Shown piece after piece: positions 6,194 to 63,911 of a stretch of DNA of 64,000 nt. Source of the stretch: an uncultured delta proteobacterium. GTDB lineage: Bacteria > Myxococcota > UBA727 > VGSZ01. The notes beneath the pieces were generated by a model. The model made no database searches. It was not told the origin of the DNA and was given only the letters and a program-made list of their open reading frames with translations. The DNA lies in the NCBI GenBank assembly GCA_963775425.1, contig CAVZJB010000002.1:64001-128000 (forward strand), written 5' to 3'. A program made the translations under genes and the position numbers. Positions within the stretch are counted from its first letter, which is position 1. Each line of letters begins with the position of its first letter.

Positions 6194-8497
6194 ATGGCCG
6201 ACGATCCGCAGGACGCCGATCCCGAGCACGCCGCCATCCCCGCGGCCGGGATGCGCGCGATGTTGGAGCGCTGCCCGGACATGGTCACGCTCATCGATGA
6301 GCGGGGGTCGATCCGTTACGTGAACGACGCCTGCCGGCAGCTCCTCGGGTGCGCGCCGGGCGACTTGCTCGGCAACGGCATGCGGCGCTTGCTCGACCCG
6401 GCCGAGGACGAGGTGCGCGCGACGCGCCTGCGCGGTGTGACCGCGAGCCGCGGCGCCGCGTTCCAGTTCCGCTACCGATGCCGGCACGCCGACGGCACGT
6501 GGCGCACGCTCGAGGCGCGCTCCTACAACGGGCTCTCCGATCCGGATCTGCGCGGCGTCGTCTCGTTCTCCCGCGACGTCACCAACGCCGACGAGGCGGC
6601 GCAGGCCCGGGGCGAGCTGCGCTTCCGCGTCGTCGCGGAGAGCATGCGGGACGGGCTGTTGACCATCGATCCCGCCGGAAACGTCCTGTACATCAACGCC
6701 GGCGTCTCCCGCATCATGGGCTACGCGCCCGAGGAGCGGGTGGGCGGCCACATGATCGACGTCATGCACCCCGACGACCTGGACAACGCCAGGCGCCGGT
6801 TCGCCGCCGCGATGGACAACGGGTCGGCGCAGTTCGACGCGCGCATCCGCCGCAAGGACGGCGCCTGGCGCGTGGTCGAAGGGCGCGCCGATCGTCTCCC
6901 GCCCGGCAACGACGCGGCCGCGCTGCTCATCACCTACCGCGACGTCACGGAAGAGCGCGCCATGCGGGAGCGGCTCGAGAGAAACGAGCGGCGCTTCCGC
7001 GCTCTCACCGAGAGGAGCGCCTCGAGCGTGATGATCGTCGGCGAGGACAAGATCATCCGCTACGCGAGCCCCCACATGTCGCTCCTCGACTTGAGCGAGG
7101 ACGAGCGCGTGGGCCGGCCCCTCGCCGGGCGCGTCCACCCCGACGACGTCGCGCGGGCGCACGCGCTCTTCGACGCGGTGGTGAAGGAGCCTGGCGGCAC
7201 GCGCCGCGGCGACTTTCGCGTCCGCCACGCCGACGGCACCTGGCGCTGGCACGACATCACGCTCGCCAACCTCCTCGACGACGACGCCGTGGCCGGCGTC
7301 GTCGTCAACCCGCGCGACGTCACGGAGCGGATCGCGGCCGAGGAGCACATGCGCACCGCGCGCAGCCTCGAGGCCATCGGGCGCCTCGCCGCCGGCGTCG
7401 CCCACGACTTCAACAACCTCCTCACCGGCATCCTCGGCAACGCGTCGCTGCTGGCGGGCGCGGTCACCGATCCACGCCAGCGCGAGGACGTCGAGCAGAT
7501 CCGCGTGGCGGGAGAGAAGGCGGCGGAGCTCACGCGACAGATCCTCGCGTTCTCCCGGCGCCAGGTGCTCAAGCGGGAGCACGTCCCCGTCAACGATCTG
7601 CTGCGCGGCCTGGTGCGCCTGTTGCGACGGGTGACGCGCGCCAACGTCAAGATCGAGCTCGTCACAGCCGACGAGGTCGGCACCGTCTACGCCGACCGGA
7701 GCCAGCTCGAGCAGGTGGTGGTGAACCTCGCGGTCAACGCCAGCGACGCCATGCCCGCCGGTGGCACGCTCACCATCGAGACGTCCCTCGTGGACGCCGA
7801 CGACGTCGCGGCGCGCGAGGAGGGCCGGCAGCAGAGCGCCGTCGGCGACGGACGCGCGGAGAAGCTCGTGTGCATTCGCGTGAGCGACACCGGGATGGGC
7901 ATGTCCCCCGAGGTGGTCGCGCACGTGTTCGAGCCGTTCTTCACCACCAAGGAGCTCGGGCGCGGCACCGGCCTCGGCCTCGCCACCGTGCACGGCGTCG
8001 TGCACCAGCACGACGGGCGCATCCTGGTGAAGAGCGCGCCCGGCGAGGGCAGCGCCTTCGAGGTGTTGCTGCCGGCGAGCGGCGGCGTGGCCGCGCCCGT
8101 GCGTCGCGAGCGGCCGCGCGGACCGGTGGCGCGCGGCTGCGAGCTGTTGCTCGTGGCCGACGACGACGAGGTCTCGCGCCGCATCACGGTGCGCCTCCTC
8201 GAGGACGCGGGCTATCGCGTGCTGGTGGCCTCGAGCGGCGAGCAAGCCCTCGAGCTGTTCGTCGCGCACGCCGACGACATCGAGCTCGTGATCCTCGACG
8301 TCGTCATGCCGGACCTGGGCGGGCCCGCCACGCTCACGCGCATGCAGGAGCTGAAGCCCGACGTGCCCTACCTCTTTGCCAGCGGCTACGCCTTCGAGCC
8401 TAGCGAGGCCGACGCGCGCATCGCGCGGCACTCTCTGCCCAAGCCCTTCGATCTCGACGAGCTCCTGCGCCGCGTGCGCGCGGCCCTCGACGCGTGA
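6194..8497 (+). CDS. Hybrid sensor histidine kinase (3 PAS, HisKA, HATPase, receiver), CckA-like
   Basis: PAS motifs (HPDD), LAAGVAHDFNNLL H-box, NLAVNASDAM, FEPFFTTK..GTGLGL, C-terminal receiver LDVVMP..KPF. Confidence 0.93.
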   Translation: MADDPQDADPEHAAIPAAGMRAMLERCPDMVTLIDERGSIRYVNDACRQLLGCAPGDLLGNGMRRLLDPAEDEVRATRLRGVTASRGAAFQFRYRCRHADGTWRTLEARSYNGLSDPDLRGVVSFSRDVTNADEAAQARGELRFRVVAESMRDGLLTIDPAGNVLYINAGVSRIMGYAPEERVGGHMIDVMHPDDLDNARRRFAAAMDNGSAQFDARIRRKDGAWRVVEGRADRLPPGNDAAALLITYRDVTEERAMRERLERNERRFRALTERSASSVMIVGEDKIIRYASPHMSLLDLSEDERVGRPLAGRVHPDDVARAHALFDAVVKEPGGTRRGDFRVRHADGTWRWHDITLANLLDDDAVAGVVVNPRDVTERIAAEEHMRTARSLEAIGRLAAGVAHDFNNLLTGILGNASLLAGAVTDPRQREDVEQIRVAGEKAAELTRQILAFSRRQVLKREHVPVNDLLRGLVRLLRRVTRANVKIELVTADEVGTVYADRSQLEQVVVNLAVNASDAMPAGGTLTIETSLVDADDVAAREEGRQQSAVGDGRAEKLVCIRVSDTGMGMSPEVVAHVFEPFFTTKELGRGTGLGLATVHGVVHQHDGRILVKSAPGEGSAFEVLLPASGGVAAPVRRERPRGPVARGCELLLVADDDEVSRRITVRLLEDAGYRVLVASSGEQALELFVAHADDIELVILDVVMPDLGGPATLTRMQELKPDVPYLFASGYAFEPSEADARIARHSLPKPFDLDELLRRVRAALDA

Positions 8498-8579
8498 CCG
8501 GCGCCTCCGGGAGGGGCGGCCGCGCCGGGGCGTTCGCGCCGGCATTGACGGGCACGGCTCGTTCGGCGACGACGACGCC

Positions 8580-8837
8580 ATGGCCGAAAAGGGAAGCGGC
8601 GGCAAGCAAGACGGCGAAGACAGCTTCGAGAAGGTCTTGAAGAAGCTCGAAGACGTCGTGGTCCGCCTCGAGAAGGGCGACCTCCCGCTCGAAGAGAGCC
8701 TCAAGGCGTACGAAGAGGGCGTGGGCCTGGTGCGCGCGGCGCAGGGGCGCCTCGACGGCATGGACAAGCGCCTCGAGCAGCTCCTGAAAAACGGCGCCAC
8801 GGCTCCGATGGCCGCGCCCGCCGACGACGAGCGATGA
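8580..8837 (+). CDS. xseB: Exodeoxyribonuclease VII small subunit
   Basis: SFEKVLKKLEDVVVRLEKGDLPLEESLKAYEEGV; overlaps ispA as in the conserved xseB-ispA pair. Confidence 0.92.
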   Translation: MAEKGSGGKQDGEDSFEKVLKKLEDVVVRLEKGDLPLEESLKAYEEGVGLVRAAQGRLDGMDKRLEQLLKNGATAPMAAPADDER

Positions 8838-9694
8838 GCGCGCGCGTGTTCGACGACGCGCTCCTCGGGGCCCTGCGCGCGCGCGCCGAGGAGGCGCTGC
8901 GCGCGTCCCTCGACGCCCCCGCCGACGGGGTGCGCGCCGCGCCCGAGCGGCTGCGCGAGGCCATGCGCTACAGCCTCCTGGCCGGCGGCAAGCGCCTGCG
9001 TCCGGTGTTGGCGCTCGCCTGCGCCGACGCCGCCCGCGGCGCCGTCGACGACGCCGTCCCCGCGGCGGTGGCGGTGGAGTACGTCCACACCTACTCGCTC
9101 ATCCACGACGACCTGCCGGCCCTCGACGACGACGACATGCGCCGCGGCCGGCCCACGCTGCACAAGGCCTTCGACGAGGCCACCGCCATCCTCGCCGGCG
9201 ACGCGCTGCTCACCGACGCGTTCGCGGTCTTGTCGGGCGCGCCGAGGAACGCGGCGGCGCAGGTGCGCGAGCTGGCGTACGCGGCGGGCAGCGCCGGCAT
9301 GGTCGGCGGTCAGGTCGACGACGTCGCGCACACGGGCCGAGACGTGGAGACGCTCGCGGACGTCCACGCGCGAAAGACGGGCCGCCTGTTCGTGGCCGCG
9401 TGCGCGCTGGGCGGCCTGGCGGCGGGCGCGAGCGACGACGTGGTGACGTCGCTGCGGGACTTCGGGCGTCACTTCGGCCTGGCGTTTCAGATCGCCGACG
9501 ACGTCCTCGACGTCACGGGCGGGCGCGGGCGCGACGCGAAGAACGAGCGCGTGACGTTCGCGACGCTCCTGGGCGTGGACGCCGCGCGGGCGCGTGCGCG
9601 CGAGTCGGCGTCTGCGGCGGTGGCGGCGGCGGACGCGCTGGCGGCGCCGGCGCTGCGGGCGTTGGCGTCGTTCGCGGCGGCGCGGGACCACTGA
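8834..9694 (+). CDS. ispA: Polyprenyl (farnesyl/geranylgeranyl) diphosphate synthase
   Basis: GGKRLRP, FARM SLIHDDLPALDDDDMRRG, GGQVDD, SARM FQIADDVLD. Confidence 0.93.
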   Translation: MSARVFDDALLGALRARAEEALRASLDAPADGVRAAPERLREAMRYSLLAGGKRLRPVLALACADAARGAVDDAVPAAVAVEYVHTYSLIHDDLPALDDDDMRRGRPTLHKAFDEATAILAGDALLTDAFAVLSGAPRNAAAQVRELAYAAGSAGMVGGQVDDVAHTGRDVETLADVHARKTGRLFVAACALGGLAAGASDDVVTSLRDFGRHFGLAFQIADDVLDVTGGRGRDAKNERVTFATLLGVDAARARARESASAAVAAADALAAPALRALASFAAARDH

Positions 9695-10302
9695 TGGGGC
9701 CCGCGGCGCTGGCGTTGCTGGCGGCGTTGTCGTTCGGGGGGCACATGCGCTCCGAGGGGCGCTCGAGCTTCTCCATCGACGACACGGGCCTCGTGGAGAT
9801 CGAGATCGAGATCGGCTTCCTCGACGTCCCCGAGCTGTGCAACGCCGACCTGCTGGTGGAGCCGGCGCGGGCCGACGAGATGCGCCGGCGGCTGGCGGCG
9901 TGCCTGACGCGGGACATGCCGCAGGTGCTGCGGGTGCGCGGCGACGAGCGGGCGTGTCCGGTGGTGTTCCTGCGCACCGAGGACAAGCCTGCGCCCGGCG
10001 ACGCCCGCGGGGGAACGCTGCGCATCTTCGCGCGCGCCGACTGCGGGGCGTTGCCGCGCGCGCTCATCGTCGACTGGGGCCTGTTTCGCGGCAGCAGCCT
10101 CGACCATGTGAGCATCGCCAAGATCGAGCAGCCCTACGACAAGCCCAGGCTCGCGATGCTCTCCAAGCGGGCGCCTCGCTTCACCCTCGAGATCGCCCGC
10201 CCGCTGTGGCCTCGTGTGGCGGCGGGCGCCGGTGTCGCGGTCCTTTTGGGCGCGGGCGCAGGCGTCTTGTTCGGGCTGCGGCGTCGCCGAAAGCGTGCTT
10301 GA
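9694..10302 (+). CDS. Hypothetical exported protein with C-terminal membrane anchor and basic tail
   Basis: ATG overlaps the ispA stop; signal peptide MGPAALALLAALSFGGH; C-terminal TM followed by RRRRKRA. Confidence 0.7.
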   Translation: MGPAALALLAALSFGGHMRSEGRSSFSIDDTGLVEIEIEIGFLDVPELCNADLLVEPARADEMRRRLAACLTRDMPQVLRVRGDERACPVVFLRTEDKPAPGDARGGTLRIFARADCGALPRALIVDWGLFRGSSLDHVSIAKIEQPYDKPRLAMLSKRAPRFTLEIARPLWPRVAAGAGVAVLLGAGAGVLFGLRRRRKRA

Positions 10303-10307
10303 GGGAT

Positions 10308-10386
10308 GGGCCGCGCCGCCTGTCCGGCGGCGAGGCCCTTCCCCTGCGGGCGCCCAGGTTCTCTTCGCGCCGAGAGTGCGCGCAAG
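10308..10386 (+). repeat. Dispersed intergenic repeat family A, copy 1
   Basis: About 80 bp, highly similar to 43798-43881; identical 29-bp core GGGCGCCCAGGTTCTCTTCGCGCCGAGAG. Confidence 0.8.
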
Positions 10387-10483
10387 AATGCCCGAACGGT
10401 GCCGGTGGCGGGCGCCCTGCGGGGAAGACTCGGCGCTCGCGCGAACCCGGCCGGCCGCGGGGCGTACGCCTGCAAGCCGTCGG

Positions 10484-12031
10484 TCAGCGGGTGAGGGCGA
10501 AGGCGCGGTTGAGGCGGTCGTTGGCGGCGGTGTAGCGGCGCTGGACCACGAGGCGGGCGACGTCGCGCTGGAGCGAGAGGATCTTCGCCTGGTGAGACGC
10601 GGGGGCGCTCTCGCTCGCGTAGGTGAGCCGCTTTTCCTTGGCGTTGATGAAGCCGCGGTCGATGCGCGTGTGCAGGGCCACGCTGCGCGCCTTGGACCAG
10701 AGGGCGTCGGCGTTGTTTCCCTGCGCTTCGAGGCGATGCGCGCGCGCGGCGAGCGCGTCCACCGTGGGCACGTCGCCGGGGAGCACGCCACGCCGCTTCA
10801 TGGCGGCGGCGAGGCGAACGCTCCCGGCGGACCCGCTCTTGACCTTGTCGTGCACGCGGGCCGAGCCGCTGTTGGTCACGCCGGCGTCCGGGCTGCCGGT
10901 GCCCCCGGCGCCGGCGACGCCGGCGTCGGCCGCGTCGCCGGCCGCCTCCGCGCTGCCGGCGTCCTCGGTGTCCCCGGCGCGCGGTGCGCTCGCGGGCTTG
11001 GCCTCCTGCGGGGGCGTGGGCGGGGGCGGCGCGGGCTTGGCCATCAGCGCCGCGACGACGGCCACGGCGACGACGGTGACGACGACGACGGCCGTGATCA
11101 GCGCCGCGCGCGGCACCGCCGGCTCGACCGCGACGGCGGGCCCCTCCTGCGAGGACGCCGCCGCCGACGCCTCGCGCACGAGCACCGTCCCCGTCGACGA
11201 CGTCGGCTCCTCGCCGTTCACCGCGCGCGCAAACGCACTCAGCAGCGCGTCGGCGTTGGCGTAGCGGTCGCTCGGGCGGCGCGCCATCGCCCGCCGCACC
11301 ACGGCGTCGACGGCGGGGCTGACGTCGGGGTTGTGCTCGAGCAGCGACGGCGGCCCCTGCTTTTGCGCCTTGAACGCCTCCGCCGGCGTCGACGCCTCGA
11401 ACGGCAGCCGCCCCGCCATGCACGCGTACAACACGACGCCGAGCGCGTAGAGGTCGCTCTGCGAGGTGGCCTGCTCGCCCTGCCAGACCTCCGGCGCGAT
11501 GAAGCGCAGCGAGCCCACCGTGCGCCCCGCCTGCGTGATGCGCGTGACGTCGTTGCCGGTGGCCATGCCGAAGTCGAGGACGCAGACGCTCCCGTCCGGC
11601 TTGATCATGATGTTGCCGGGCTTGAGGTCGCGATGCACCACGCCCACGTCGTGCGCCGCCTGCAGCGCCGGCACGATCCCCCGCAGGATCTCGAGCACCC
11701 GCGCCGGCGGCTGGCGCCCCTCGCGGTGGATGAGCGCCGCCAACGTCTCCCCCGCGACGTACTCCATGGTGATGAAGGTGTGGCCGTCCTCCTCGTGGAG
11801 GTCGTGCAGCCGGGAGACGCCCGCGGAGTTGATGCGGCGGGTGAGCACGATCTCGCGCTTGAAGCGCTCGCGCACCTCCGGGTCGTCGACGAGCCACGGG
11901 TGGAGGACCTTCAGCGCCACCGCCTGGTCCAACAGCGTGTCGCGCGCGAGGTACACCACGCCCGACGCACCCTTCCCGAGGGTCTCCTCGAGGAGGAAGC
12001 GCGACAGCCTGCTGCCAGGACCTAGGTCCAT
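10484..12031 (-). CDS. Hanks-type Ser/Thr protein kinase with TM helix and extracytoplasmic C-terminus
   Basis: LGKGASGVVY, VALKVL, HRDLKPGNIMI, DFG, APE; hydrophobic TM ITAVVVVTVVAVAVVAALM. Confidence 0.93.
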   Translation of the reverse strand: MDLGPGSRLSRFLLEETLGKGASGVVYLARDTLLDQAVALKVLHPWLVDDPEVRERFKREIVLTRRINSAGVSRLHDLHEEDGHTFITMEYVAGETLAALIHREGRQPPARVLEILRGIVPALQAAHDVGVVHRDLKPGNIMIKPDGSVCVLDFGMATGNDVTRITQAGRTVGSLRFIAPEVWQGEQATSQSDLYALGVVLYACMAGRLPFEASTPAEAFKAQKQGPPSLLEHNPDVSPAVDAVVRRAMARRPSDRYANADALLSAFARAVNGEEPTSSTGTVLVREASAAASSQEGPAVAVEPAVPRAALITAVVVVTVVAVAVVAALMAKPAPPPPTPPQEAKPASAPRAGDTEDAGSAEAAGDAADAGVAGAGGTGSPDAGVTNSGSARVHDKVKSGSAGSVRLAAAMKRRGVLPGDVPTVDALAARAHRLEAQGNNADALWSKARSVALHTRIDRGFINAKEKRLTYASESAPASHQAKILSLQRDVARLVVQRRYTAANDRLNRAFALTR

Positions 12032-54013: not shown

Positions 54014-56206
54014 TCACTCCGCGAGCCAGGCCTTGGCGGCCTCGATGACGGTGTCCTTGCCCTGCACGGCGTCGCTCTGCCGCTGCAGGACGTTCGTGTC
54101 GGGGCGCTCGCCCGTCGACGTGGGGAAGTCGGTGTTGGCGTCGTCCTGGCTCGTCAGGAACAGCGTGTCCTGCACCTGCAGGCTGCCGCCGGCGAGCTCG
54201 CCGATGTGCGCCGGCAAGGACCAGATGACGCCGAACGCGCCCCACGTCGAGCCCGCGCCGAACACGCGGGTCTGGCCCGTGCGGCCGCGCAGGATCTTCG
54301 TGAGGTAGTCGTTGCCCGACACGTCGAGGCCGATGAGCACGGCGAGCTTGGAGTCCCCGGCGACGCCGAGGTGGTTGGTGGCGACGGAGCCGAACAGCCA
54401 GCGGAAGCCGTTGCCGCAGCCGAAGTAGTCCTGGCTGTTCGCCGAGCAGTCGACCACCGCCTGGCGCGCGGCGGCGAGGTCGTCGCCCTCGAGCCCGGGC
54501 AGGAAGTCCATGGCGTAGAGGTCGCCGGGGCTCGACAGCTCTCCACCAATCCAGTCGACGGCGTCGATGCCGCCGCCGTCGCCGGTGCGCTCGTCGAGCA
54601 CGAGCTCGTTCGGGTCGTCGCCGAGGGCGCTGTCGACCTGATCGAACCACGCCTGGCCGCCCTGGCCGTACTGTTGGGGCACCCCGTTGATCACGAGGAA
54701 GCGCACGCCGTCGACGTCCTTGTGGCCGGCGAAGGCGTAGTCGGTGCTGGCGCCGGTGCTGTTGTCGGGCACCGGGCGCACGAAGCGGTAGTCGCAGGCG
54801 GCGACGTCCTCGTACTGCACGGGCGACTCGCCGTTGAGGACGGCGTCGCCGACGAGCGCGCCGAGGTCGAGGTCGATCTGCTGCACGTCGCCGGCGGCGC
54901 AGGGCGTGCCGTCGGTGTGGTCGCAGCGGGCGAAGGTGGCGACGGCGCCGGTGTCGAGCGCGGCGACGAAGATCTGCGGCGCCGTGACCACCGCGCGGCC
55001 CTCGGGGTCGCCGGGGTGCGTGACGAGCCGGCCGGCCTGCGCCGCCCAATCGGCGGTGGGGATGCCGTCGATGGCGACGAGGGCGTCGCCGGGCTCGAGC
55101 CCCGCGGCGAGCGCGTTGGCGCCGGTCTGGAACACGAGCGGCACCTCTTGCGCCGCGCCGTCCACGGGCGGCAGCAGATCGGCGACGCCCTGGTGCACGC
55201 ACACGCCCGCGTTCTGGAACGCTGGGTAGCCGACGGTGGGGGCGCTCGCGTGCCCGTCGACGAGCAGCGTGTACGCCTGGGTGAAGGTCGGCCAGAACGT
55301 CGACGCCTTGGGGTTGTCCTTCAGCGGCGTGAGCGCGTCGGCGACGAGCGACGCGCGGCTCTCGGGGGCGCGCCCGCCTTCGAACAGCGAGACCTCGAAG
55401 ATGCGGCGGTCGACGTAGTCGTTGCGCAGGTCATCGTCGATGAGCGGTTGGCCGACGTGGATGGCGGCGTCGACGCAGCGGCCGAGGTTGCACAGGCCGG
55501 CGTCGCCGCAGTCCTGGCTCTCGGTGGGGAGCGTGCAGGAGACGGCGGGGACGAGCGCGTCGCCGAGGTCGACCGCGTACAGCCCGTCGATGAGCGCGCG
55601 CGCGCCGCTGTTTTCGGCGAGGCCGCCGTAGGCGCCGTAGACGGCCTCGTCGATGAGGTCGAGGCTGGTGGCGGGGACGGACTCGGCCCACGCGAAGTCG
55701 ATGGGGCCCGAGGTCCACTCCTCCCAGCCGTCGTCGGTGACGTTGCCCGTCTGCTGGAAGGTGACGGCGCCGAGGTACATGGGCGCGGTGACGTCGCCGC
55801 CGTACCAGGTCATCGACGGGATCATGCGCGTGCCCTGCGGCTTCTCCCAGAGCGTGAGCTGCACCCGGTGCCCGATGAGGTCGGTGAGGCCGGAGACGGG
55901 GATGCTCAGGTAGTTGAGGTCGCCGCCGGCGGCGAGCGCGCCGTCGCCCTCGAGGGCCACGCCGTCGTCGCGGGTGATGCGGCCGGCGACGCCGGCCTCG
56001 TCGAACTGCTGGTTGGTGAAGGCGTCGTAGCCCTGGATGCCGAGGCCCTCAAGGGCGGCCGCGTCGTCGAAGGACAGCGAGAAGGCCGCGTCGTCGTTGA
56101 CGACCCTGCCGGTGGTCTCGTCGAAGCCCGCCGCGTGCGCGGGCGCCGCCAGGAGGGCGACGCCGGCCGCGACGAACGGGGGGAGCGAGAGAGCGAGGGC
56201 GCGCAT
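54014..56206 (-). CDS. Secreted PDZ-containing, S41 peptidase-like protein (degenerate motifs)
   Basis: Signal peptide AHA; GLEPGDALVAIDG (PDZ); LVLDERTGDGG, VLIGLDVSGND, VFG..TWGAFG and GERPD resemble S41 motifs. Confidence 0.6.
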   Translation of the reverse strand: MRALALSLPPFVAAGVALLAAPAHAAGFDETTGRVVNDDAAFSLSFDDAAALEGLGIQGYDAFTNQQFDEAGVAGRITRDDGVALEGDGALAAGGDLNYLSIPVSGLTDLIGHRVQLTLWEKPQGTRMIPSMTWYGGDVTAPMYLGAVTFQQTGNVTDDGWEEWTSGPIDFAWAESVPATSLDLIDEAVYGAYGGLAENSGARALIDGLYAVDLGDALVPAVSCTLPTESQDCGDAGLCNLGRCVDAAIHVGQPLIDDDLRNDYVDRRIFEVSLFEGGRAPESRASLVADALTPLKDNPKASTFWPTFTQAYTLLVDGHASAPTVGYPAFQNAGVCVHQGVADLLPPVDGAAQEVPLVFQTGANALAAGLEPGDALVAIDGIPTADWAAQAGRLVTHPGDPEGRAVVTAPQIFVAALDTGAVATFARCDHTDGTPCAAGDVQQIDLDLGALVGDAVLNGESPVQYEDVAACDYRFVRPVPDNSTGASTDYAFAGHKDVDGVRFLVINGVPQQYGQGGQAWFDQVDSALGDDPNELVLDERTGDGGGIDAVDWIGGELSSPGDLYAMDFLPGLEGDDLAAARQAVVDCSANSQDYFGCGNGFRWLFGSVATNHLGVAGDSKLAVLIGLDVSGNDYLTKILRGRTGQTRVFGAGSTWGAFGVIWSLPAHIGELAGGSLQVQDTLFLTSQDDANTDFPTSTGERPDTNVLQRQSDAVQGKDTVIEAAKAWLAE

Positions 56207-56502: not shown

Positions 56503-58209
56503 TCAGGGGATGACGCCGTCGTAGGCGCGGTGGGCGCGTACGGTGCCGATCGGCGTGGTCGCGGGCAGGGCGGCGGTGTCGACCGCGGCGCCGTCCTTGT
56601 CGAGGGCCAACAGCACGAAGCGCACGACGCCGCCGTCGTGGCTCGAGGCCGCGACACCCTGGAGCGCGAGCGGGGCGTCGGCACAGACGCGCGAGATGGG
56701 TTGGAAGTCGACGCCGTCGACGCTGCCTTCGGCGGTGGCGCACAGGCCGCCGTCCTCGACGACCAGGCGGCCCCAGGGCACGCTCTCCTCGTCGACGGTG
56801 TTCGGGGGCGCGAGGTCCGCGCGCGTCACCGTCGTCCCGCCGCCCGCCGTCGTGCGGCTCTGTGCGCGCAAGGGCTCGTTGTCCGCCGGGCGGCACACGG
56901 CGACGTACGGCGCGCCCGCCCCCGTCGACGCGCGCGCCATCAGGCAGACCTTGGCGAACTCCTGCACGTGGCTGTTCTCCGTCGACAACAGCGCCGTCCA
57001 TGTGGCGGCGAGGGTCCCGTCGGCGAGGTCGTCGTGGAGGAACACGAAGTCGTCGCTCGTGCCCTCGATGTCGCCGGAGTCGACCTCCACCGCGAGCGCG
57101 CGCAGGTCCTCCGCGCGGCCGGCGCAGTCGGCGGCGGTGAAGCACGAAAACGGAAAGCCGTTCGCCTGGTGCGTCGTCGCGAACAGGTCCCGGTTCAGGT
57201 TGACCTTGTCCGTCGCGAGGATGGCGATGTCGTCGGCGAGGACGCCGTCCCACGTGCCCGCGTCGTTGACGCCGAACGCGCGCGCGACGAGGCCGGCGGC
57301 GTGCACGCCGCTCGCGAGCGCGCGGTCGCCGGCGTCGACGTTCAGGAACACCACGCCCGGCCGCGCGTCGTACGCGGCCAGGCCGCACGTGGTGTCGAGC
57401 TGCGGGGCGACGAACGCGTCGCGGGAGGCGCCGTCGTCGTCGCCGACGTAGGCGTCGAGGGCGCCGCCGAGGCCGCAGGCGCGGCCGCCGGTGAGGACGG
57501 CGAGGAACTTCCCGCGCAGCTCGACGTCGGTGGGCCAGCCGCACGACGTCGTCACCGCGTCCCTCAAGGACGTCGCCGCCGGGCAGCGCTCGAGGAGCGC
57601 GCGCGCCGGGAACAGCGCGTCGCCGAGCCCGCCCTCGAGCGCGGCGTCGAGGTCGTCGGTGCCGTGGCCGTCGGCGGCCGTGAAGGCGCTCTTGACGTCG
57701 ACGAAGATGGTGATCGGCTCGTGGTTCGGCGCCGCGCGATGAAACGCCATCAGGTTGCCGAGGCAGTCCGACAGGCGGTGGCAGGTGGTCCCCGTGTCGT
57801 TGTTGTCGTGGAACACGAACCACTCGCCCGGCGTCGTCGTGAAGCCGCTCTTGTCCCGGTGGATGTCGAGCTCCAGGCTCCTGACGTCGTGGTAGCCGAG
57901 CATGTCGACCAGCGCCTCGTCGCGCTGGAACGCGTTGTGCGCCGACTTCTGGATGAGCGCGTCGTAGGGCACCCCAAGGTCACCTTCACCTTCGCCCTCG
58001 CCTTCACCTTCGCCCTCGCCTTCACCCTCGCCCTCGCCCTCGCCCTCGCCCTCGCCCTCGCCTTCACCTTCGCCTTCGCCCTCGCCCTCGCCTTCGCCTT
58101 CGCCCTCGCCGGCGGCGGGCGTGCCGGGGCACCCGGCCGCGGTGACGACGGCGACGGCGAGGGGGAAGGCCAGGGGGACGGCGAGCACCAGGGCGAGCGA
58201 CGCGCGCAT
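56503..58209 (-). CDS. Lipoprotein, PI-specific phospholipase C-like (PLC/GDPD fold), with (GE)n linker and C-terminal beta-sandwich
   Basis: Lipobox AAGC; SAHNAFQ, RSLELDIH, VFH, HEPITIFVDVK, WPT..LRGKF, ILATD. Confidence 0.8.
   Translation of the reverse strand: MRASLALVLAVPLAFPLAVAVVTAAGCPGTPAAGEGEGEGEGEGEGEGEGEGEGEGEGEGEGEGEGEGEGEGEGEGDLGVPYDALIQKSAHNAFQRDEALVDMLGYHDVRSLELDIHRDKSGFTTTPGEWFVFHDNNDTGTTCHRLSDCLGNLMAFHRAAPNHEPITIFVDVKSAFTAADGHGTDDLDAALEGGLGDALFPARALLERCPAATSLRDAVTTSCGWPTDVELRGKFLAVLTGGRACGLGGALDAYVGDDDGASRDAFVAPQLDTTCGLAAYDARPGVVFLNVDAGDRALASGVHAAGLVARAFGVNDAGTWDGVLADDIAILATDKVNLNRDLFATTHQANGFPFSCFTAADCAGRAEDLRALAVEVDSGDIEGTSDDFVFLHDDLADGTLAATWTALLSTENSHVQEFAKVCLMARASTGAGAPYVAVCRPADNEPLRAQSRTTAGGGTTVTRADLAPPNTVDEESVPWGRLVVEDGGLCATAEGSVDGVDFQPISRVCADAPLALQGVAASSHDGGVVRFVLLALDKDGAAVDTAALPATTPIGTVRAHRAYDGVIP
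57979..58110 (-). repeat. 6-bp tandem repeat encoding about 21 GE dipeptides
   Basis: GGCGAG/GGCGAA/GGTGAA units. Confidence 0.9.
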
Positions 58210-58318: not shown

Positions 58319-58882
58319 CTACAGCGACTCGTAGTGGGCGCGGGCGACGGGCTGGGCCTGCAGCCAGCGCAGGGCGTAGTCGACGAACGCCTCGGCGAGG
58401 GTCTCGGCTTCCCCGTGCTCGACGGCGCCGCTCTTCACCAGGCGCTCGAAGGTGGCCACGCGCTCGGTGACCTCGTAGAGGCGGCGGCGGTCGAGGGGGC
58501 CGGAGGTGTTGTCGTTGAACCAGAGGATGAGCTGCTCGACCATGTCGAGCGACCACGGCCTCGTCGACAGCGGCGCGTACTGCGGGTGCTCCGCGAGCCA
58601 TTGGTAGCCGCGCGCGATGAAGGTGCGCGCCAGGGGCATGGCGTCTTCCTCGACGCCGCCGCCCTCGACGCGGTGGACGAAGCGCAGGAAGTCGCGGACG
58701 TGTTTGCGGATGCCGTCGTCGTCGTAGGGCGGCACGCGGTCGATCTCGTGGAACGCGAGCACGGCGCGGCCGACCATGGCCTTGGTCCAACGCCCGTCGA
58801 CCGGGCCGTTCGGCGCGCGCAGGACGGGTGACACCCGCTCCGCCGCCGCGACCGCCCTCGACTTTGCCGCGTGCTTGGCCAT
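58319..58882 (-). CDS. Hypothetical helical protein
   Basis: 187-aa ORF with internal similarity (LARTFIARGYQWLAEHP / LAEAFVDYALRWLQAQP). Confidence 0.68.
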   Translation of the reverse strand: MAKHAAKSRAVAAAERVSPVLRAPNGPVDGRWTKAMVGRAVLAFHEIDRVPPYDDDGIRKHVRDFLRFVHRVEGGGVEEDAMPLARTFIARGYQWLAEHPQYAPLSTRPWSLDMVEQLILWFNDNTSGPLDRRRLYEVTERVATFERLVKSGAVEHGEAETLAEAFVDYALRWLQAQPVARAHYESL

Positions 58883-58898: not shown

Positions 58899-59999
58899 TC
58901 AGCGGAGCTTGAGGGGCCCGATCGACTCGGTGATCGCGCCCGGCCCGCCTGTGCGCTCGACGTAGAATTCGCGCACACGGTTGGGATCGACGTCGGGCGC
59001 GTTCACCGTGAGCGGACCGAGGGGGATGAAGCCCGTGTACGCCCACCCGGACGTGGCGTCCTGCCCGAGGCTCAGCCGGGCGAAGCGCTCGCCACGGTGG
59101 GCTTCGATGACGCTGCCCTTCTTCCACGACAGCGAGCCGTCGTTCGCGCGCCCGAAGGTCCTGCGGATGGCACCCGCATGCGCGGCAGACACGTGGTGCT
59201 CCTTGCGCCCGCCGGTGACCGCACCGCCGCCGTCCTCGTTGTCGGACGGGTACTTCATCGAGGTCATGGTGTGACCGGGCGGCGACGACGACGTCCCCGG
59301 GTCTTCCTCGTCGGACGGGTACTTGATGGTGAGCCGCGGGAACATGCCGAGCGCGTGTGCGGCGCCGGCGATCTCCGGCAGCGGCGCCGCCAACCACGCG
59401 CGCAGCTCCTCGAGCTCGACGCGCTTGAGCGGCATCGTCCTGGCGTGCGCGATGAGCCGCTCGAGCTCGGCCGACGCGTCGTGCAGCTCGCGCTCGGCGG
59501 CGCGCAGCTCGCGGGTCGCGGACTTCGCGGCGTGGTCCGCGAGGCGAATGACCTGGGCCTTGGCGTGGTGCACGTCGGCGGCGGCGGCGTCCAGCCACGC
59601 GTGCACCTGCGCGAGGCCCCCGCGCACCGCGCGCGATCCTCCTCCGCGGACGAGCTGCTGCAGCCGCGCCCGGGCGCGCTTGAGCTTGTCGCCGGCGTCG
59701 GCGGCCTCCTCGCGTGCGGCCAGCCGGGCCTCGAGGGCGCGGGTGCCGGCGGACGATTTGCGCCCGGCGCCCTTGACGAAATCGACCAGGACCTGGCGCG
59801 CCTTCTCCGAGAGGTGGGTGGCGTCCTTGCCGTCGAGGAAGCGCTGGACGATGGCGGCGCCGTCGTCGGCCTCGCCGAGCTCCTTCAGGGCCTTTTCGGC
59901 TTCGGTCTTGGTGATGGTCGCCCGGCCCTGGGAGCGCGTCCGCCGCGCGGCCTTGAGGGAGGTGGCGAAGGCGGTCTCGGGGGCGACGGGGCGGGGCAT
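58899..59999 (-). CDS. Hypothetical protein with coiled-coil and two (T/S)xKYPSDxED motifs
   Basis: LTIKYPSDEED and TSMKYPSDNED; C-terminal FYVERTGG domain. Confidence 0.72.
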   Translation of the reverse strand: MPRPVAPETAFATSLKAARRTRSQGRATITKTEAEKALKELGEADDGAAIVQRFLDGKDATHLSEKARQVLVDFVKGAGRKSSAGTRALEARLAAREEAADAGDKLKRARARLQQLVRGGGSRAVRGGLAQVHAWLDAAAADVHHAKAQVIRLADHAAKSATRELRAAERELHDASAELERLIAHARTMPLKRVELEELRAWLAAPLPEIAGAAHALGMFPRLTIKYPSDEEDPGTSSSPPGHTMTSMKYPSDNEDGGGAVTGGRKEHHVSAAHAGAIRRTFGRANDGSLSWKKGSVIEAHRGERFARLSLGQDATSGWAYTGFIPLGPLTVNAPDVDPNRVREFYVERTGGPGAITESIGPLKLR

Positions 60000-60128
60000 C
60001 ACGGGTTGTTCTAGCGCGCGCGCGGGGTGTTTGGCGCCACTGGACAAACACCGGGGCGCGCGGGATCTTTCGCGTTCCTAGGGGGCCGCAGGGCCCGTAC
60101 ACGCGCTCGCGTAGTTGGGAAAGAAGAC

Positions 60129-60422
60129 ATGGCGAACAACGACAACAACCGTCTCTACGTCGGAAACCTCCCCTTCAAGACCACCGATGACGACCTCGGG
60201 AGTCTCTTCAGCTCCTTCGGCACCGTGGGTCGCGCTTCGGTGGTGACCGACCGAGAGACCGGCCGCTCGCGCGGCTTCGGCTTCGTCGAGATGGGGACCC
60301 CCGACGAGGCGCAGGCGGCCATCTCCGCGCTCGACGGCAAGCCGTTCGAGGGGCGCAACCTCCAGGTGAACGTCGCGCGCCCGCGCGAGGATCGCCCCCG
60401 CCGCGGCCCCGGACGCTTCTGA
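60129..60422 (+). CDS. RRM (RNP-1) RNA-binding protein
   Basis: LYVGNL (RNP2), RGFGFVEM (RNP1), [10 protein letters not shown]. Confidence 0.95.
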
Positions 60423-60518: not shown

Positions 60519-61655
<1,137 letters not shown>

Positions 61656-61794
61656 GTGACGAGCATAGCTCCGGGGCAACGGCGATGGATGGCCCATCCT
61701 CCCAACGTCCGTGGGGTAACGTGCGCGCGAGGCCTCCCGCAGGGAAGGCGCGCGAGAGAGAGAGACGGCCGGAGGGCACGTGGACGAGCGGGAG

Positions 61795-62265
61795 ATGATC
61801 ATTCACAAGGACACCGTCAGCGTGGAGCTGTGCTCCACGCACGGCGCGCAGTCCCGCGGCGAGGTGTTCCTGCGGCCGCCCCAGGAGGGGACCGACCGCG
61901 GCGAGCGGCTGCTCGACGTCCTGGCCGAGCGCTGGTTCGTCCCGCTCAAGACACCGGAGCGGCTCACCTTCGTGGCAACACGCCACATCGCGTGGGCGCG
62001 CATCGACCTGCTCGCGGCCATCGACGAGCTCGATCCCGAGGCCGAGGACGACGAGAGCAGTTGCACCGCCACCGTCGTCGTCGAGCTCAACTTCGGCGCC
62101 AAGCTCGAGGGCGTCGTGCGCTACGCGCTGCCGCACCCGATGCGGCGGCTGGGCGACTACCTCGAGCGGCTGCCGTCGTTCTTCCCGCTCAGGACGGACG
62201 ACTGGCTTTACCTGGTGAGCTCCACCTGCGTCTCGTCGGTGACGCCGCTCGAGGAGAAACGCTGA
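61795..62265 (+). CDS. DUF6812-like protein (two tandem small beta domains)
   Basis: RGEVFL..ERLLDVL..FVPL repeated as EGVV..RRLGDYL..FFPL; stop overlaps the pilT start. Confidence 0.65.
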   Translation: MIIHKDTVSVELCSTHGAQSRGEVFLRPPQEGTDRGERLLDVLAERWFVPLKTPERLTFVATRHIAWARIDLLAAIDELDPEAEDDESSCTATVVVELNFGAKLEGVVRYALPHPMRRLGDYLERLPSFFPLRTDDWLYLVSSTCVSSVTPLEEKR

Positions 62266-63911
62266 TGTTCCGCGCCATCGACCGCTTCGTCGCTGCCATT
62301 CGCCGCGGGGAGGGCGAGGAGATCATCTTCGCCACGGGCCAGCCCGTGCGTGCGCGCAGCGGCGCGCAGGTGCGCGTGCTCCTCGCGCAGCCCGTCCGCT
62401 CCGACCAGATCCAGAGCATCCTGCAGGAGGTGGTGCCGCGCAGCATCGACCGCGGCTTCACCCTCGACGGCGACGCCACCTTCACCTTCGACGCGCCCGG
62501 CGGCCCGGTCACGGTGCACCTGCGCCGTCACCAGGGGCGGCTCGACGCCGTGCTGCGCCCCGCCCCGGAGACGCCGTCGCCGCCGCCGGCGCCGGCGCCG
62601 TCGGCGTCCTCGTCGCCGTCCTCCGCGCCGTCCTCCTCGTTGGGGGCGTCGCCGTCGTCCTCGCCGCCGCCGCCGTCGGTGGCGCGCTCGCCGTCGCCGT
62701 CGTGGTCGTCGACGCCGCAAGCGGCTCCCGCGTCGCCGGCGGCGCAGGCGCCTGCCGCCCCATCCCAGCTCGAGCAGGGGCCGCCGCGCAGCGACACGCG
62801 GCCGGTGCCGGCGTTTGCGCCCGGGCGCAAGCAGATCGATCCGCTTTTGCACGCGCTCGTCGCGCAGAAGGCGAGCGACCTGCACCTCACGGCCAACATG
62901 CAGCCGCGCATGCGCAAGGACGGCGACATCGGGCTGCTGCCGGGCTTCGAGCAGCCGCTGTCGCCGGACACCATCCGCAGCATGTTGATGGAGCTCGCCA
63001 CCGCGCCGTCACGCGAGAAGTTCGAAAAGACCAACGACGCCGACTTCGCGTACGAGATCGAAGGCCTCGCGCGCTTCCGCGTGAACGCCTTCAAGGATCG
63101 CCGCGGCGTCAGCGGCGTCTTGCGCGTCATCCCGTCGAAGATCTTGACGGCCGACGAGCTCGGCCTGCCGCGCGCGGTGCGCGAGATGTGCTCGCTGCAC
63201 AAGGGCCTCGTGCTCGTCACCGGGCCCACCGGCTCCGGCAAGTCCACCACGCTCGCGGCGATGATCGACCTCATCAACGGCGCCCGCAACGACCACATCA
63301 TCACCATCGAAGACCCCGTCGAGTTCGTGCACCACACGCGGGGGTGCCTGGTGAACCAGCGCGAGGTGCACGTCGACACGGTCAGCTACGCGGCGGCGTT
63401 GCGCGCGGCGTTGCGCGAGGACCCCGACATCGTCCTCGTCGGCGAGCTGCGCGACCTCGAGACCGTCGCCATCGCCATCGAGACCGCGGAGACCGGCCAC
63501 CTGGTGTTCGGCACGCTGCACACCACCACGGCGCCGTCCACCATCGACCGCATCATCGACCAGTTCCCCTCGGACCGGCAGTCGCAGATCCGCGTGATGC
63601 TCTCGGAGAGCCTGCGCGGCGTCGTCGCGCAGACCTTGTGCAAGAAGGTCGGCGGCGGCCGCTGCGCCGCACTCGAGATCCTCGTGTGCAACACCGCGGT
63701 CGCGAACTTGATCCGCGAGGCAAAGACGTTTCAGATCCCGAGCTTGATGCAGACGCAGAAGCAGATCGGGATGCAGACGCTGAACGACGCGCTCTTCACG
63801 CTGGTGAAGGACGGCGCCGTCGCCCCCGACGAGGCCTTCCACAAGGCCGTCGACCGCACCGGCTTCAAGATGATGCTCGACCGCGCGCAGATCAAGCTGG
63901 GGGCGCATTGA
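62265..63911 (+). CDS. pilT: Type IV pilus retraction ATPase PilT with an extra N-terminal PilT-N-like domain
   Basis: ASDLHL, ARFRVNAF, GPTGSGKSTT, TIEDPVE, ALREDPD, GHLVFGTLHT, AVANLIRE, GMQTL. Confidence 0.92.
   Translation: MFRAIDRFVAAIRRGEGEEIIFATGQPVRARSGAQVRVLLAQPVRSDQIQSILQEVVPRSIDRGFTLDGDATFTFDAPGGPVTVHLRRHQGRLDAVLRPAPETPSPPPAPAPSASSSPSSAPSSSLGASPSSSPPPPSVARSPSPSWSSTPQAAPASPAAQAPAAPSQLEQGPPRSDTRPVPAFAPGRKQIDPLLHALVAQKASDLHLTANMQPRMRKDGDIGLLPGFEQPLSPDTIRSMLMELATAPSREKFEKTNDADFAYEIEGLARFRVNAFKDRRGVSGVLRVIPSKILTADELGLPRAVREMCSLHKGLVLVTGPTGSGKSTTLAAMIDLINGARNDHIITIEDPVEFVHHTRGCLVNQREVHVDTVSYAAALRAALREDPDIVLVGELRDLETVAIAIETAETGHLVFGTLHTTTAPSTIDRIIDQFPSDRQSQIRVMLSESLRGVVAQTLCKKVGGGRCAALEILVCNTAVANLIREAKTFQIPSLMQTQKQIGMQTLNDALFTLVKDGAVAPDEAFHKAVDRTGFKMMLDRAQIKLGAH

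Follow-up and report, generated by a model that had tools for sequence, protein, structure and literature searches.

How might a bacterium make a microviridin when the protein that carries the cores has neither a leader of its own nor a ligase gene beside it? This question is raised by a gene near the end of a 64,000-nucleotide stretch (hereafter the window, in its full length) of contig CAVZJB010000002.1 of assembly GCA_963775425.1, from an uncultured delta proteobacterium of the Myxococcota. Its 366-residue product, P0001, carries two sequences resembling the cores of microviridins, the graspetides whose side chains are cross-linked by ATP-grasp ligases. A first-pass annotation of the DNA had left the choice between a protein-embedded graspetide substrate modified in trans and an unmodified inhibitory or bait motif. 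The comparative analysis presented here leads us to propose, with a probability of about 60%, that P0001 is the core-bearing part of a natural microviridin pathway split over three unlinked loci, in which the leader would be supplied in trans and the product would be a serine-protease inhibitor.

Two microviridin-type cores in a large protein

The gene for P0001 occupies positions 58902-59999 of the window on the minus strand and is closed by a stop codon at 58899-58901 (minus strand); an alternative TTG start at 60047 on the same strand would give a product of 382 residues. The translation contains ...FPRLTIKYPSDEEDPGTSSSPPGHTMTSMKYPSDNEDGGG..., and the G+C content at third codon positions (GC3) is 0.94. 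Core 1, TIKYPSDEED (T224-D233; 59301-59330, minus strand), and core 2, SMKYPSDNED (S247-D256; 59232-59261, minus strand), were recognized in the translation, in two separate stretches of hidden Markov model (HMM) matches, by a genome-wide regular expression and as invariant columns in the alignment of homologues. Both fit the published microviridin signature, TxKxPSDx(D/E)(D/E) (PMC12848669, excerpt), with their ring-forming residues complete, and P0001 scores above the cut-offs of the Pfam family PF12559, Inhibitor_I10 (25.1 bits against a curated cut-off of 21), and of the NCBIfam family NF033738, microvirid_RiPP (28.6 bits in two stretches, against 26). The claim of two TxKYPSD-type cores in a 366-residue open reading frame (ORF), on which the first-pass annotation had rested, is thus borne out by the translation and by both HMM cut-offs; the interval that it gave, 59232..59330, matches the outer ends of core 2 and core 1 exactly, and the cores do lie close together, although its spacing of 22 residues needs correction, the two lysines being 23 residues apart.

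The significance of the motif was gauged on a six-frame translation of the whole 8.26 Mb assembly (16.5 million residues), with expectations derived from composition. Against 0.04 occurrences expected, the pattern [TS]xKxPSDx[DE][DE] is found in two places, each within the P0001 ORF, so that a search for further proteins of the [TS]xKYPSD type, as had been suggested, comes back to these two sites alone. The pentapeptide [KR]YPSD, with 4.3 occurrences expected and two observed (both in P0001), is by itself not improbable, and a looser core pattern is expected 2.1 times in the genome; hence, the excess resides in the full ten-residue pattern and in its two copies in one frame. Taken together, these observations confirm that the P0001 cores are genuine microviridin-type motifs.

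P0001 departs, at the same time, from three features by which precursors are usually recognized: a leader in the same polypeptide, a gene adjacent to the ligases, and short length, for it has 366 residues and two folded domains. The published precursor survey of Makarova, as excerpted (PMC8939145), took candidates of <=150 residues within two genes of a ligase. No PFFARFL-type motif was found in P0001 or in its full-length homologues, and no signal peptide is seen in its translation. The absence from the window of a PFFARFL leader and of an ATP-grasp gene, already remarked in the first-pass annotation, extends to the rest of the contig (C2 in our numbering), on which a search for MvdD-like ligases found none.

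Conservation of the cores and architecture of the protein

A word-indexed homologue search, in which 8000 candidates were scored, returned eight relatives of P0001. Seven of these are full-length, 35-43% identical to it, and have an identical three-part layout with two to five cores each. In the alignment of nine proteins (26-52% identical), the T, K, P, S, D, E and D of the first core are invariant, as are the K, P, S, D, E and D of the last core, which in P0001 correspond to K249, P251, S252, D253, E255 and D256. The cross-linking residues are therefore retained while the copy number varies, a pattern of conservation that indicates that the cores are under selection. The eighth relative, P0009 (479 residues), displays a long helical N-terminal region, then RPFFARFLENQ, and then about ten cores; it lacks the C-terminal domain of P0001, here termed Cdom.

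An AlphaFold2 model of P0001, built on the alignment of the eight homologues (mean predicted local distance difference test score, pLDDT, 78), resolves the protein into three parts. The N-domain (residues 1-218; window 59346-59999, minus strand) is predicted to be helical over residues 7-218 and ends in a conserved helix-kink-helix, ...LRAWLAAPLPEI...; it is conserved both in the homologues and in orthologues devoid of cores, and a Pfam scan of it found no family matches. It is followed by an interdomain linker (residues 219-266; window 59202-59345, minus strand) with both cores inside, which is predicted to be disordered (pLDDT 31-36 over residues 222-266); this segment is missing from the orthologues of genus g2, which carry no cores. 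The Cdom (residues 262-366; window 58902-59216, minus strand) forms the compact C-terminal part of the full-length model, spanning residues 272-364; folded alone on 19 sequences, it is predicted to have one helix packed on a four-stranded antiparallel sheet (pLDDT 90.9). By the model, then, the cores sit in a disordered, accessible segment, in agreement with their earlier placement in a flexible segment between a coiled-coil and a C-terminal globular domain.

The genomic distribution of these proteins was sampled by a locus scan with one genome per species, which returned 50 loci. Full-length relatives of P0001 are encoded at three of them (L007-L009), all in metagenome-assembled genomes (MAGs) of Myxococcota, and a further 11, from the Myxococcaceae and Archangiaceae, match the cores and the Cdom alone. 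Neither a ligase gene nor a leader-protein gene stands beside the P0001-type gene at any of eight loci (its own, L007-L009 and L121-L124), of which flanks of 1.5-10 kb were examined. We also asked whether the segment WLAxPLPEL of P0001-type proteins, aligned by MAFFT with the PFFARFL of P0009, might be a degenerate cis leader; this idea was rejected because the helix is equally conserved in the core-less g2 orthologues, and a canonical leader was then found elsewhere.

An orphan ligase pair on a second contig

The search for graspetide ligases elsewhere in the genome, to which the first-pass annotation had pointed, recovered a pair of MdnB-type and MdnC-type ATP-grasp genes at G000:C3:366293-368343 (G000 being the genome of P0001), with no precursor alongside. 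The two genes are translationally coupled, with overlapping stop and start codons, and match TIGR04184 at G000:C3:366332-367270 and 367321-368277 with 328.7 and 193.4 bits, respectively; an additional TIGR04184 match on contig C14 is weak and unrelated. The closest solved relatives of the upstream gene are 5ig8 (E 4e-58) and 7m4s (AMdnB), and those of the downstream gene are 5ig9 (MdnC, E 6e-70) and 7mgv (CdnC). Judging from these similarities, the pair is probably of the right type, comprising a predicted lactam-forming MdnB-type and a predicted lactone-forming MdnC-type ligase. Within 19 kb around it, regular expressions found no core or leader motif, and no transporter, C39 peptidase or acetyltransferase was seen.

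The probable history of this locus emerges from genome G031, of another family in the same order, in which the locus L027 has the gene order TldD-PmbA-(oxoprolinase)-P0009-MdnB-MdnC-FolD-...-GcvH-GcvP. The order on C3 is TldD-PmbA-MdnB-MdnC-(nitroreductase)-FolD-GcvT-GcvH-GcvP; the slot taken in G031 by the giant cis precursor P0009 stands empty. This synteny suggests that the precursor gene was lost from C3 and kept in the sister lineage. A complex prediction for the MdnC-type ligase with residues 186-266 of P0001 gave a score of 0.00, obtained without controls, and is counted neither way.

A putative stand-alone leader protein on a third contig

The third part is a 168-residue protein encoded at G000:C8:194656-195159 (minus strand; L002:1483-1986), which ends in PLPFFARYLVKQDGLRRQR and contains no core. 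Its C-terminus bears a canonical leader motif, PLPFFARYL, in the ending PLPFFARYLVKQ...; the full end reads ...GSGRPLPFFARYLVKQDGLRRQR-stop. Against an expectation of 0.006 for the whole genome, the pattern PFFAR[FY]L occurs once, in this protein. Over the last ~168 codons of the frame, GC3 is 0.96-0.98, typical of real genes in this genome. Homologues are found in genomes G037, G038 and G040 and among metagenome proteins (two), and all six members of the family end in PFFAR(F/Y)LxxQ..(K/R)R-stop, with the P, F, F, A, R and L of the motif invariant at overall identities of 38-64%.

The profile of this family aligns in hhalign with residues 114-260 of P0009, that is, with its leader up to PFFARFLENQ, at a probability of 94.9% (E 4.8e-8), and its matches in G031 and G006 are only to leaders fused to cores. 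Given this homology and the fused forms elsewhere, the C8 protein is probably a leader whose cores have been split off.

Co-occurrence of the three parts

Among 11 sampled genomes of family f1, the core protein, the MdnB/MdnC pair and the leader protein are jointly present in four (G000, G037, G038 and G040), whereas core-bearing proteins, ligases of the clade described below and leader proteins are all missing from the other seven. The seven fall into three sets: G032, G033 and G034, of genus g2, each with a core-less orthologue made of N-domain and Cdom, and with one ATP-grasp gene; G035 and G039, with a Cdom match alone and no ligases; and G036 and G041, with neither core protein nor ligases. 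The all-or-none pattern recurs within a single genus, g4, where three genomes have all the parts and three have none, the latter being 94, 95 and 88% complete. In a quick IQ-TREE search on 51 rows, from which three divergent L026 rows had been dropped, the four genomes with all the parts have MdnC-type ligases that group in one clade (support by the Shimodaira-Hasegawa-like approximate likelihood ratio test, SH-aLRT, 94), G037 being represented in it by its precursor-less C62 pair. The g2 ligases were entertained as counter-examples to the co-occurrence and set aside: they fall into a long-branch clade of their own and come from genomes without cores, so that they belong to another system. The parts list and the coupling of the three parts have strong comparative support, and the earlier suggestion of an embedded graspetide substrate modified in trans is favored by the ligases, the conservation of the cores and the separate leader protein.

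Two of these genomes deserve comment in their own right. G037 encodes, besides the split parts, a canonical cluster on G037:C78 (L101/L089), whose cis precursor has PFFARFLEGQ and the cores TLKYPSDADE and TMKYPSDDDE, as well as the precursor-less ligase pair on G037:C62 (L113); with a canonical and a split system in one genome, it offers a natural system for cross-talk. G032, like the other genomes of genus g2, lacks microviridin cores and has just one ATP-grasp gene of the MvdD-like kind, highly divergent and placed directly downstream of a 669-residue ORF of no assigned family (locus L112, G032:C14:113000-130000; ORFs at 8258-9229 and 9256-11376, both minus strand); the g2 ATP-grasp may be a further ligase with a large protein as its substrate.

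The Cdom, a rare domain shared with cis precursors

The Cdom provides a further link between P0001 and microviridins. In the 11 loci of Myxococcaceae and Archangiaceae, it lies upstream of the cores: at L013, for example, a 299-residue ORF with the architecture Cdom-EPFFGRFLEG-7 x HTMKAPSDNEDGGG stops 1 nt short of the first ATP-grasp gene. The ligase pair directly follows the Cdom-PFFxRFL-cores precursor in eight of the 11; among the remaining three, one includes the beginning of the first ligase gene, and two reach the contig end. With the Cdom downstream of the cores in P0001 and upstream of them in the L013-type loci, one rare domain accompanies microviridin cores in two orders.

The rarity is considerable: the Cdom profile matches 140 of 1.84 billion representative proteins (E <= 0.001). 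Some proteins have tandem Cdoms, in up to four copies (P0010-P0012 carry 3-4). Cores were detected by regular expression in 20 of 145 Cdom-bearing proteins, and by Pfam in P0054, and about 120 Cdom proteins have no core. A Pfam scan of 98 of the 137 new Cdom representatives (the longer ones picked by eye; P0129, over the length limit, left out) revealed just two families in the convincing Cdom proteins scanned, namely Inhibitor_I10 (5 proteins) and the chagasin-type Inhibitor_I42, the latter in five proteins above the cut-off and in one below it. The fusions of Cdom and I42, which occur in either order, are P0016, P0037, P0071, P0076, P0095 and P0116. Matches to immunoglobulin, leucine-rich repeat and GEVED families were all in weak, multi-stretch Cdom matches and are probably spurious. 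The Cdom is rare, and since its recognized fusion partners are protease-inhibitor modules only, it may be a new domain for inhibition or targeting; the fusions suggest that the Cdom itself could be a protease-inhibitor or protease-targeting module.

The domain has no convincing known fold or family. A Pfam scan of the P0001 Cdom found no family; Emfourin (PF20242) matches three of 19 Cdom sequences weakly (best E 0.15, far below the cut-off), and a PF20242 search of the genome did not match the Cdom. A sequence profile search of the PDB gave a short uL11-like stretch alone (E 0.02), and Foldseek with the Cdom model returned nothing at E <= 0.001. With the same model, VIA-align reached a best Z of 4.5, with propeptide rows and those of the cystatin type, a fold considered for the Cdom, at Z 3.3-4.2, and the best ESM Atlas score with the Cdom was 0.87, under the 0.9 threshold for a lead. 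The genome encodes two Cdom paralogues without cores, at G000:C11:106059-106394 and G000:C17:132997-133269 (both minus strand); one of them ends a ~290-residue protein and the other a long protein of repeated ~60-residue helical modules (...RRITLAEV...NGVISKTEK...).

A proposed split pathway and its rivals

Characterized ligases of this type do not act on a core without a leader, and the PFFARFL helix binds a hairpin of MdnC/MdnB and activates the enzyme (PMC7823629, excerpt). We hence propose that the C-terminal PFFAR(F/Y)L helix of the C8 protein docks on the C3 ligases and activates them in trans. These would then form two omega-esters and one omega-amide per core, with six dehydrations in total. 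If the ring topology of microviridin chemistry is transferred to P0001 (PMC7823629, excerpt), the predicted cross-links of core 1 are the esters T224-D230 and S229-E232 and the amide K226-D233, and those of core 2 the esters S247-D253 and S252-E255 and the amide K249-D256. P0001 would then either remain whole and display two tricyclic cages or be cut by proteases to release free peptides resembling microviridins. The predicted P1-determining residues are Ile225 in core 1 and Met248 in core 2; in the variants covered by the excerpted text of PMC7823629, Met, Leu and Val at the P1 position favor subtilisin and elastase. By analogy, serine proteases of the subtilisin, elastase or chymotrypsin type are the likely targets.

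In view of the core-less orthologues made of N-domain and Cdom, and of the Cdom-chagasin fusions, a multi-headed inhibitor that stays intact is no less likely than a precursor that is cut into pieces. More tentatively, it is conceivable that the C8 protein is a dedicated leader, that the cages reside in the linker of an intact, cytoplasmic multi-headed inhibitor, and that the Cdom of this inhibitor is a new inhibitor or targeting module; we regard this fuller picture as possible, albeit with less than even odds.

Several points weigh against the split pathway. The g2 orthologues retain the N-domain and the Cdom without any core, which implies that the protein has a function of its own and that the cores were inserted into it. 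The first residue of core 2 is Ser, against Thr in the consensus. The TIGR04184 scores of the C3 pair lie below the NCBI equivalog cut-off of 475 bits. The four positive genomes are related and so not independent, and their co-occurrence may reflect one or two evolutionary events only; moreover, the complete canonical cluster of G037 could in principle serve trans cores. The joint action of the three parts, the ring topology, the inhibition and the fate of the protein, intact or cut, are what we infer from the comparisons above.

A more particular difficulty concerns the recognition of the leader. In MdnC, the leader Arg is read by Glu191, Asp192 and Asn195 (PMC7823629, excerpt). The Glu191/Asp192 positions are His203-His204 in the C3 MdnC-type ligase and Ala-Ala in three g4 ligases of its clade, with the leader Arg kept in both cases, and the matching site of the MdnB-type partners reads, inconsistently, AGD, DDD, DDD and DQA. 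We examined whether this loss might be proof of co-evolution with a leaderless substrate and discarded the idea: an acidic residue at the Asp192 position is missing in 11 of 46 MdnC-type ligases, of which four adjoin cis precursors, so that the loss is not specific to the clade of the split system, and the MdnB-type partners show no pattern. A myxomiditide ligase, MyxD2, also lacks Glu191/Asp192 equivalents; alone it shows no activity, and it requires partner ligases (PMC12848669, excerpt). It is possible that the C3 MdnC-type ligase likewise depends on its MdnB-type partner.

The same clade without the acidic pair that binds the leader Arg gives some room to a first rival, which we hold to be unlikely, namely that the C3 ligases cyclize the cores and the C8 protein is uninvolved, the ligases being either leader-independent or guided by the folded N-domain or Cdom. 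A recognition module might be expected to accompany cores in two domain orders, as the Cdom does, and a helix, ...VRxWLAxPLPEL, lies 14 residues ahead of core 1. However, about 120 Cdom proteins carry no cores, and the WLAxP helix is just as well conserved in the core-less orthologues. The leader motif, PFFAR(F/Y)L, is for its part invariant in proteins only 38-64% identical, and the leader tracks the other parts in 4/4 genomes against 0/7.

No more probable than this is a second rival, that the motifs are unmodified, acting as linear, substrate-like baits or inhibitors or just as a flexible acidic linker, while the ligases and the leader are relics or are otherwise employed. The want of a cis leader and of a ligase in the window is compatible with such a role, the parent protein family works without cores, and a Cdom fused to other inhibitor modules implies that the protein could inhibit proteases without cross-links. 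Against this, all residues of the three rings are invariant, including the Lys and the terminal acidic pair, which a linear bait would not need; the intact, coupled ligase pair has no candidate cores in the genome other than those of P0001; the three parts co-occur in an all-or-none manner inside one genus; and microviridin activity is tied to the cage structure (PMC7823629, excerpt).

Least probable of all, in our estimate, is that P0001 is a conventional multi-core (class II-like) precursor with irrelevant folded domains, trimmed by TldD/PmbA to exported free tricyclic peptides: both of these genes do lie directly upstream of the C3 ligases (<60 nt before the first), L027 has the same neighborhood with a 68% identical TldD, and with three TldD/PmbA pairs in the genome one could be dedicated, but we downgraded them as a dedicated maturation protease because the adjacency is part of a housekeeping synteny (TldD, PmbA, FolD, GcvTHP) common to L027 and absent at the precursor-less ligase pair of G037, and neither the C3 locus, which over its 19 kb shows none of the three gene types named above (transporter, C39 peptidase, acetyltransferase), nor P0001, with no signal peptide, speaks for export.

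Neighboring genes in the window

A 187-residue protein is encoded at 58319-58882 (minus strand), starting 17 nt after the P0001 stop codon; it has no Pfam or NCBIfam match, tblastn finds it beside none of the homologous loci, and it probably lies outside the system. A 730-residue protein with a signal peptide (54014-56206, minus strand), 2.7 kb from the P0001 gene, has weak matches to an S41 N-terminal domain (E 3e-4) and to PDZ (E 4e-3), both under the cut-offs, and is not conserved beside the homologues. Two proteins with a hydrophobic N-terminus and a (Glu-Gly)n linker of about 20-25 repeats are encoded at 56503-58209 and 60519-61802 (both minus strand), the former with a domain resembling phosphatidylinositol-specific phospholipase C (PI-PLC; PF16670, E 3e-9). 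Divergent from P0001 in orientation is the gene for a small bacterial RNA-binding protein of the RNA recognition motif (RRM) type (60126-60422, plus strand; PF00076, E 3.8e-24). Farther on, an ORF recognized by eye as similar to twitching-motility ATPases of the PilT/PilU type, with the Walker A motif GPTGSGKST, occupies 62700-63911 (plus strand). The 187-residue, S41/PDZ-like, PI-PLC-like and RRM neighbors were considered as partners of P0001 and rejected, as they lie beside no g4 homologue.

Comparison with known systems

Among the closest parallels are the class II multi-core microviridins (Anabaena AMdnA/B/C and chryseoviridin CdnA/B/C), which have the same tandem TxKxPSDx(D/E)(D/E) cores and likewise combine two paralogous ATP-grasp ligases (those in 5ig9, 7mgv, 5ig8 and 7m4s being relatives of the C3 pair) with a PFFARFL-type leader motif. 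In the genome studied here, by contrast, the leader and the cores are on separate polypeptides, encoded on different contigs with neither gene beside the ligases; the core carrier is a 366-residue protein with two folded domains rather than a peptide of <=150 residues, and the ligase locus shows no transporter, peptidase or acetyltransferase. The proposed use of a leader in trans has a laboratory counterpart, for reconstitutions of microviridin biosynthesis have reportedly supplied the leader in trans or joined it to the ligase (Li et al. 2016; Reyna-Gonzalez et al. 2016). They follow the logic proposed here, in that a PFFARFL helix activates the ligases on a core without an attached leader; the laboratory version, however, is engineered and in vitro, whereas here a natural, genomically fixed separation would apply, with the leader on a protein of ~130-170 residues.

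Closer in phylogeny is myxomiditide (myx), from a deep-sea Myxococcota MAG, which shares the phylum, the core motif, a PFFxRFx leader and cooperative ligases. As described in the excerpt of PMC12848669, its single compact cluster encodes four ligases and small cis precursors, and KxxE lactams are present in addition; the system reported here has two ligases, no cis precursor and no KxxE motif. The Cdom-PFFxRFL-(core)n precursors of the Myxococcaceae and Archangiaceae (L013 and its like) have the same cores and a ~100-residue Cdom 28-31% identical to that of P0001, and in the quick tree a larger clade unites their ligases with those of C3 (SH-aLRT 98). They differ in having the reversed order, with an N-terminal Cdom, a canonical leader, up to seven cores and a gene directly before the ligases. 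Clusters of the antiSMASH "microviridin" type have been listed for Archangium, Cystobacter and Sorangium (PMC12766979, excerpt). Corallotide and other large graspetide precursors (PMC13097080, excerpt) resemble P0001 in that a myxobacterium supplies a large, repeat-bearing substrate, but corallotide belongs to a different graspetide group, with isopeptide and hydroxylation chemistry, and is encoded within its cluster.

Genome mining for peptides that are ribosomally synthesized and then modified after translation (RiPPs) expects a short precursor beside the enzymes, with leader and core on one peptide, and a split system would be invisible to it. Besides the survey cited at the outset, another required a motif-bearing precursor near the ligase (PMC12848669, excerpt); with surveys seeking short, ligase-adjacent precursors, a split arrangement would go unreported. 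A search of the full-text literature, supplementary tables aside, found no description of such an architecture. If the proposal is correct, the three loci do in nature what the trans-leader approach to microviridin libraries does in the laboratory, graspetide ligases can decorate folded proteins in nature, and at least some ATP-grasp pairs without an adjacent precursor are explained; P0001 would, in addition, be a ready-made leader-free scaffold for the display of protease-inhibitor cages on proteins. The arrangement described here differs from the known systems in that leader, cores and enzymes are physically separate and the cores are built into a folded protein.

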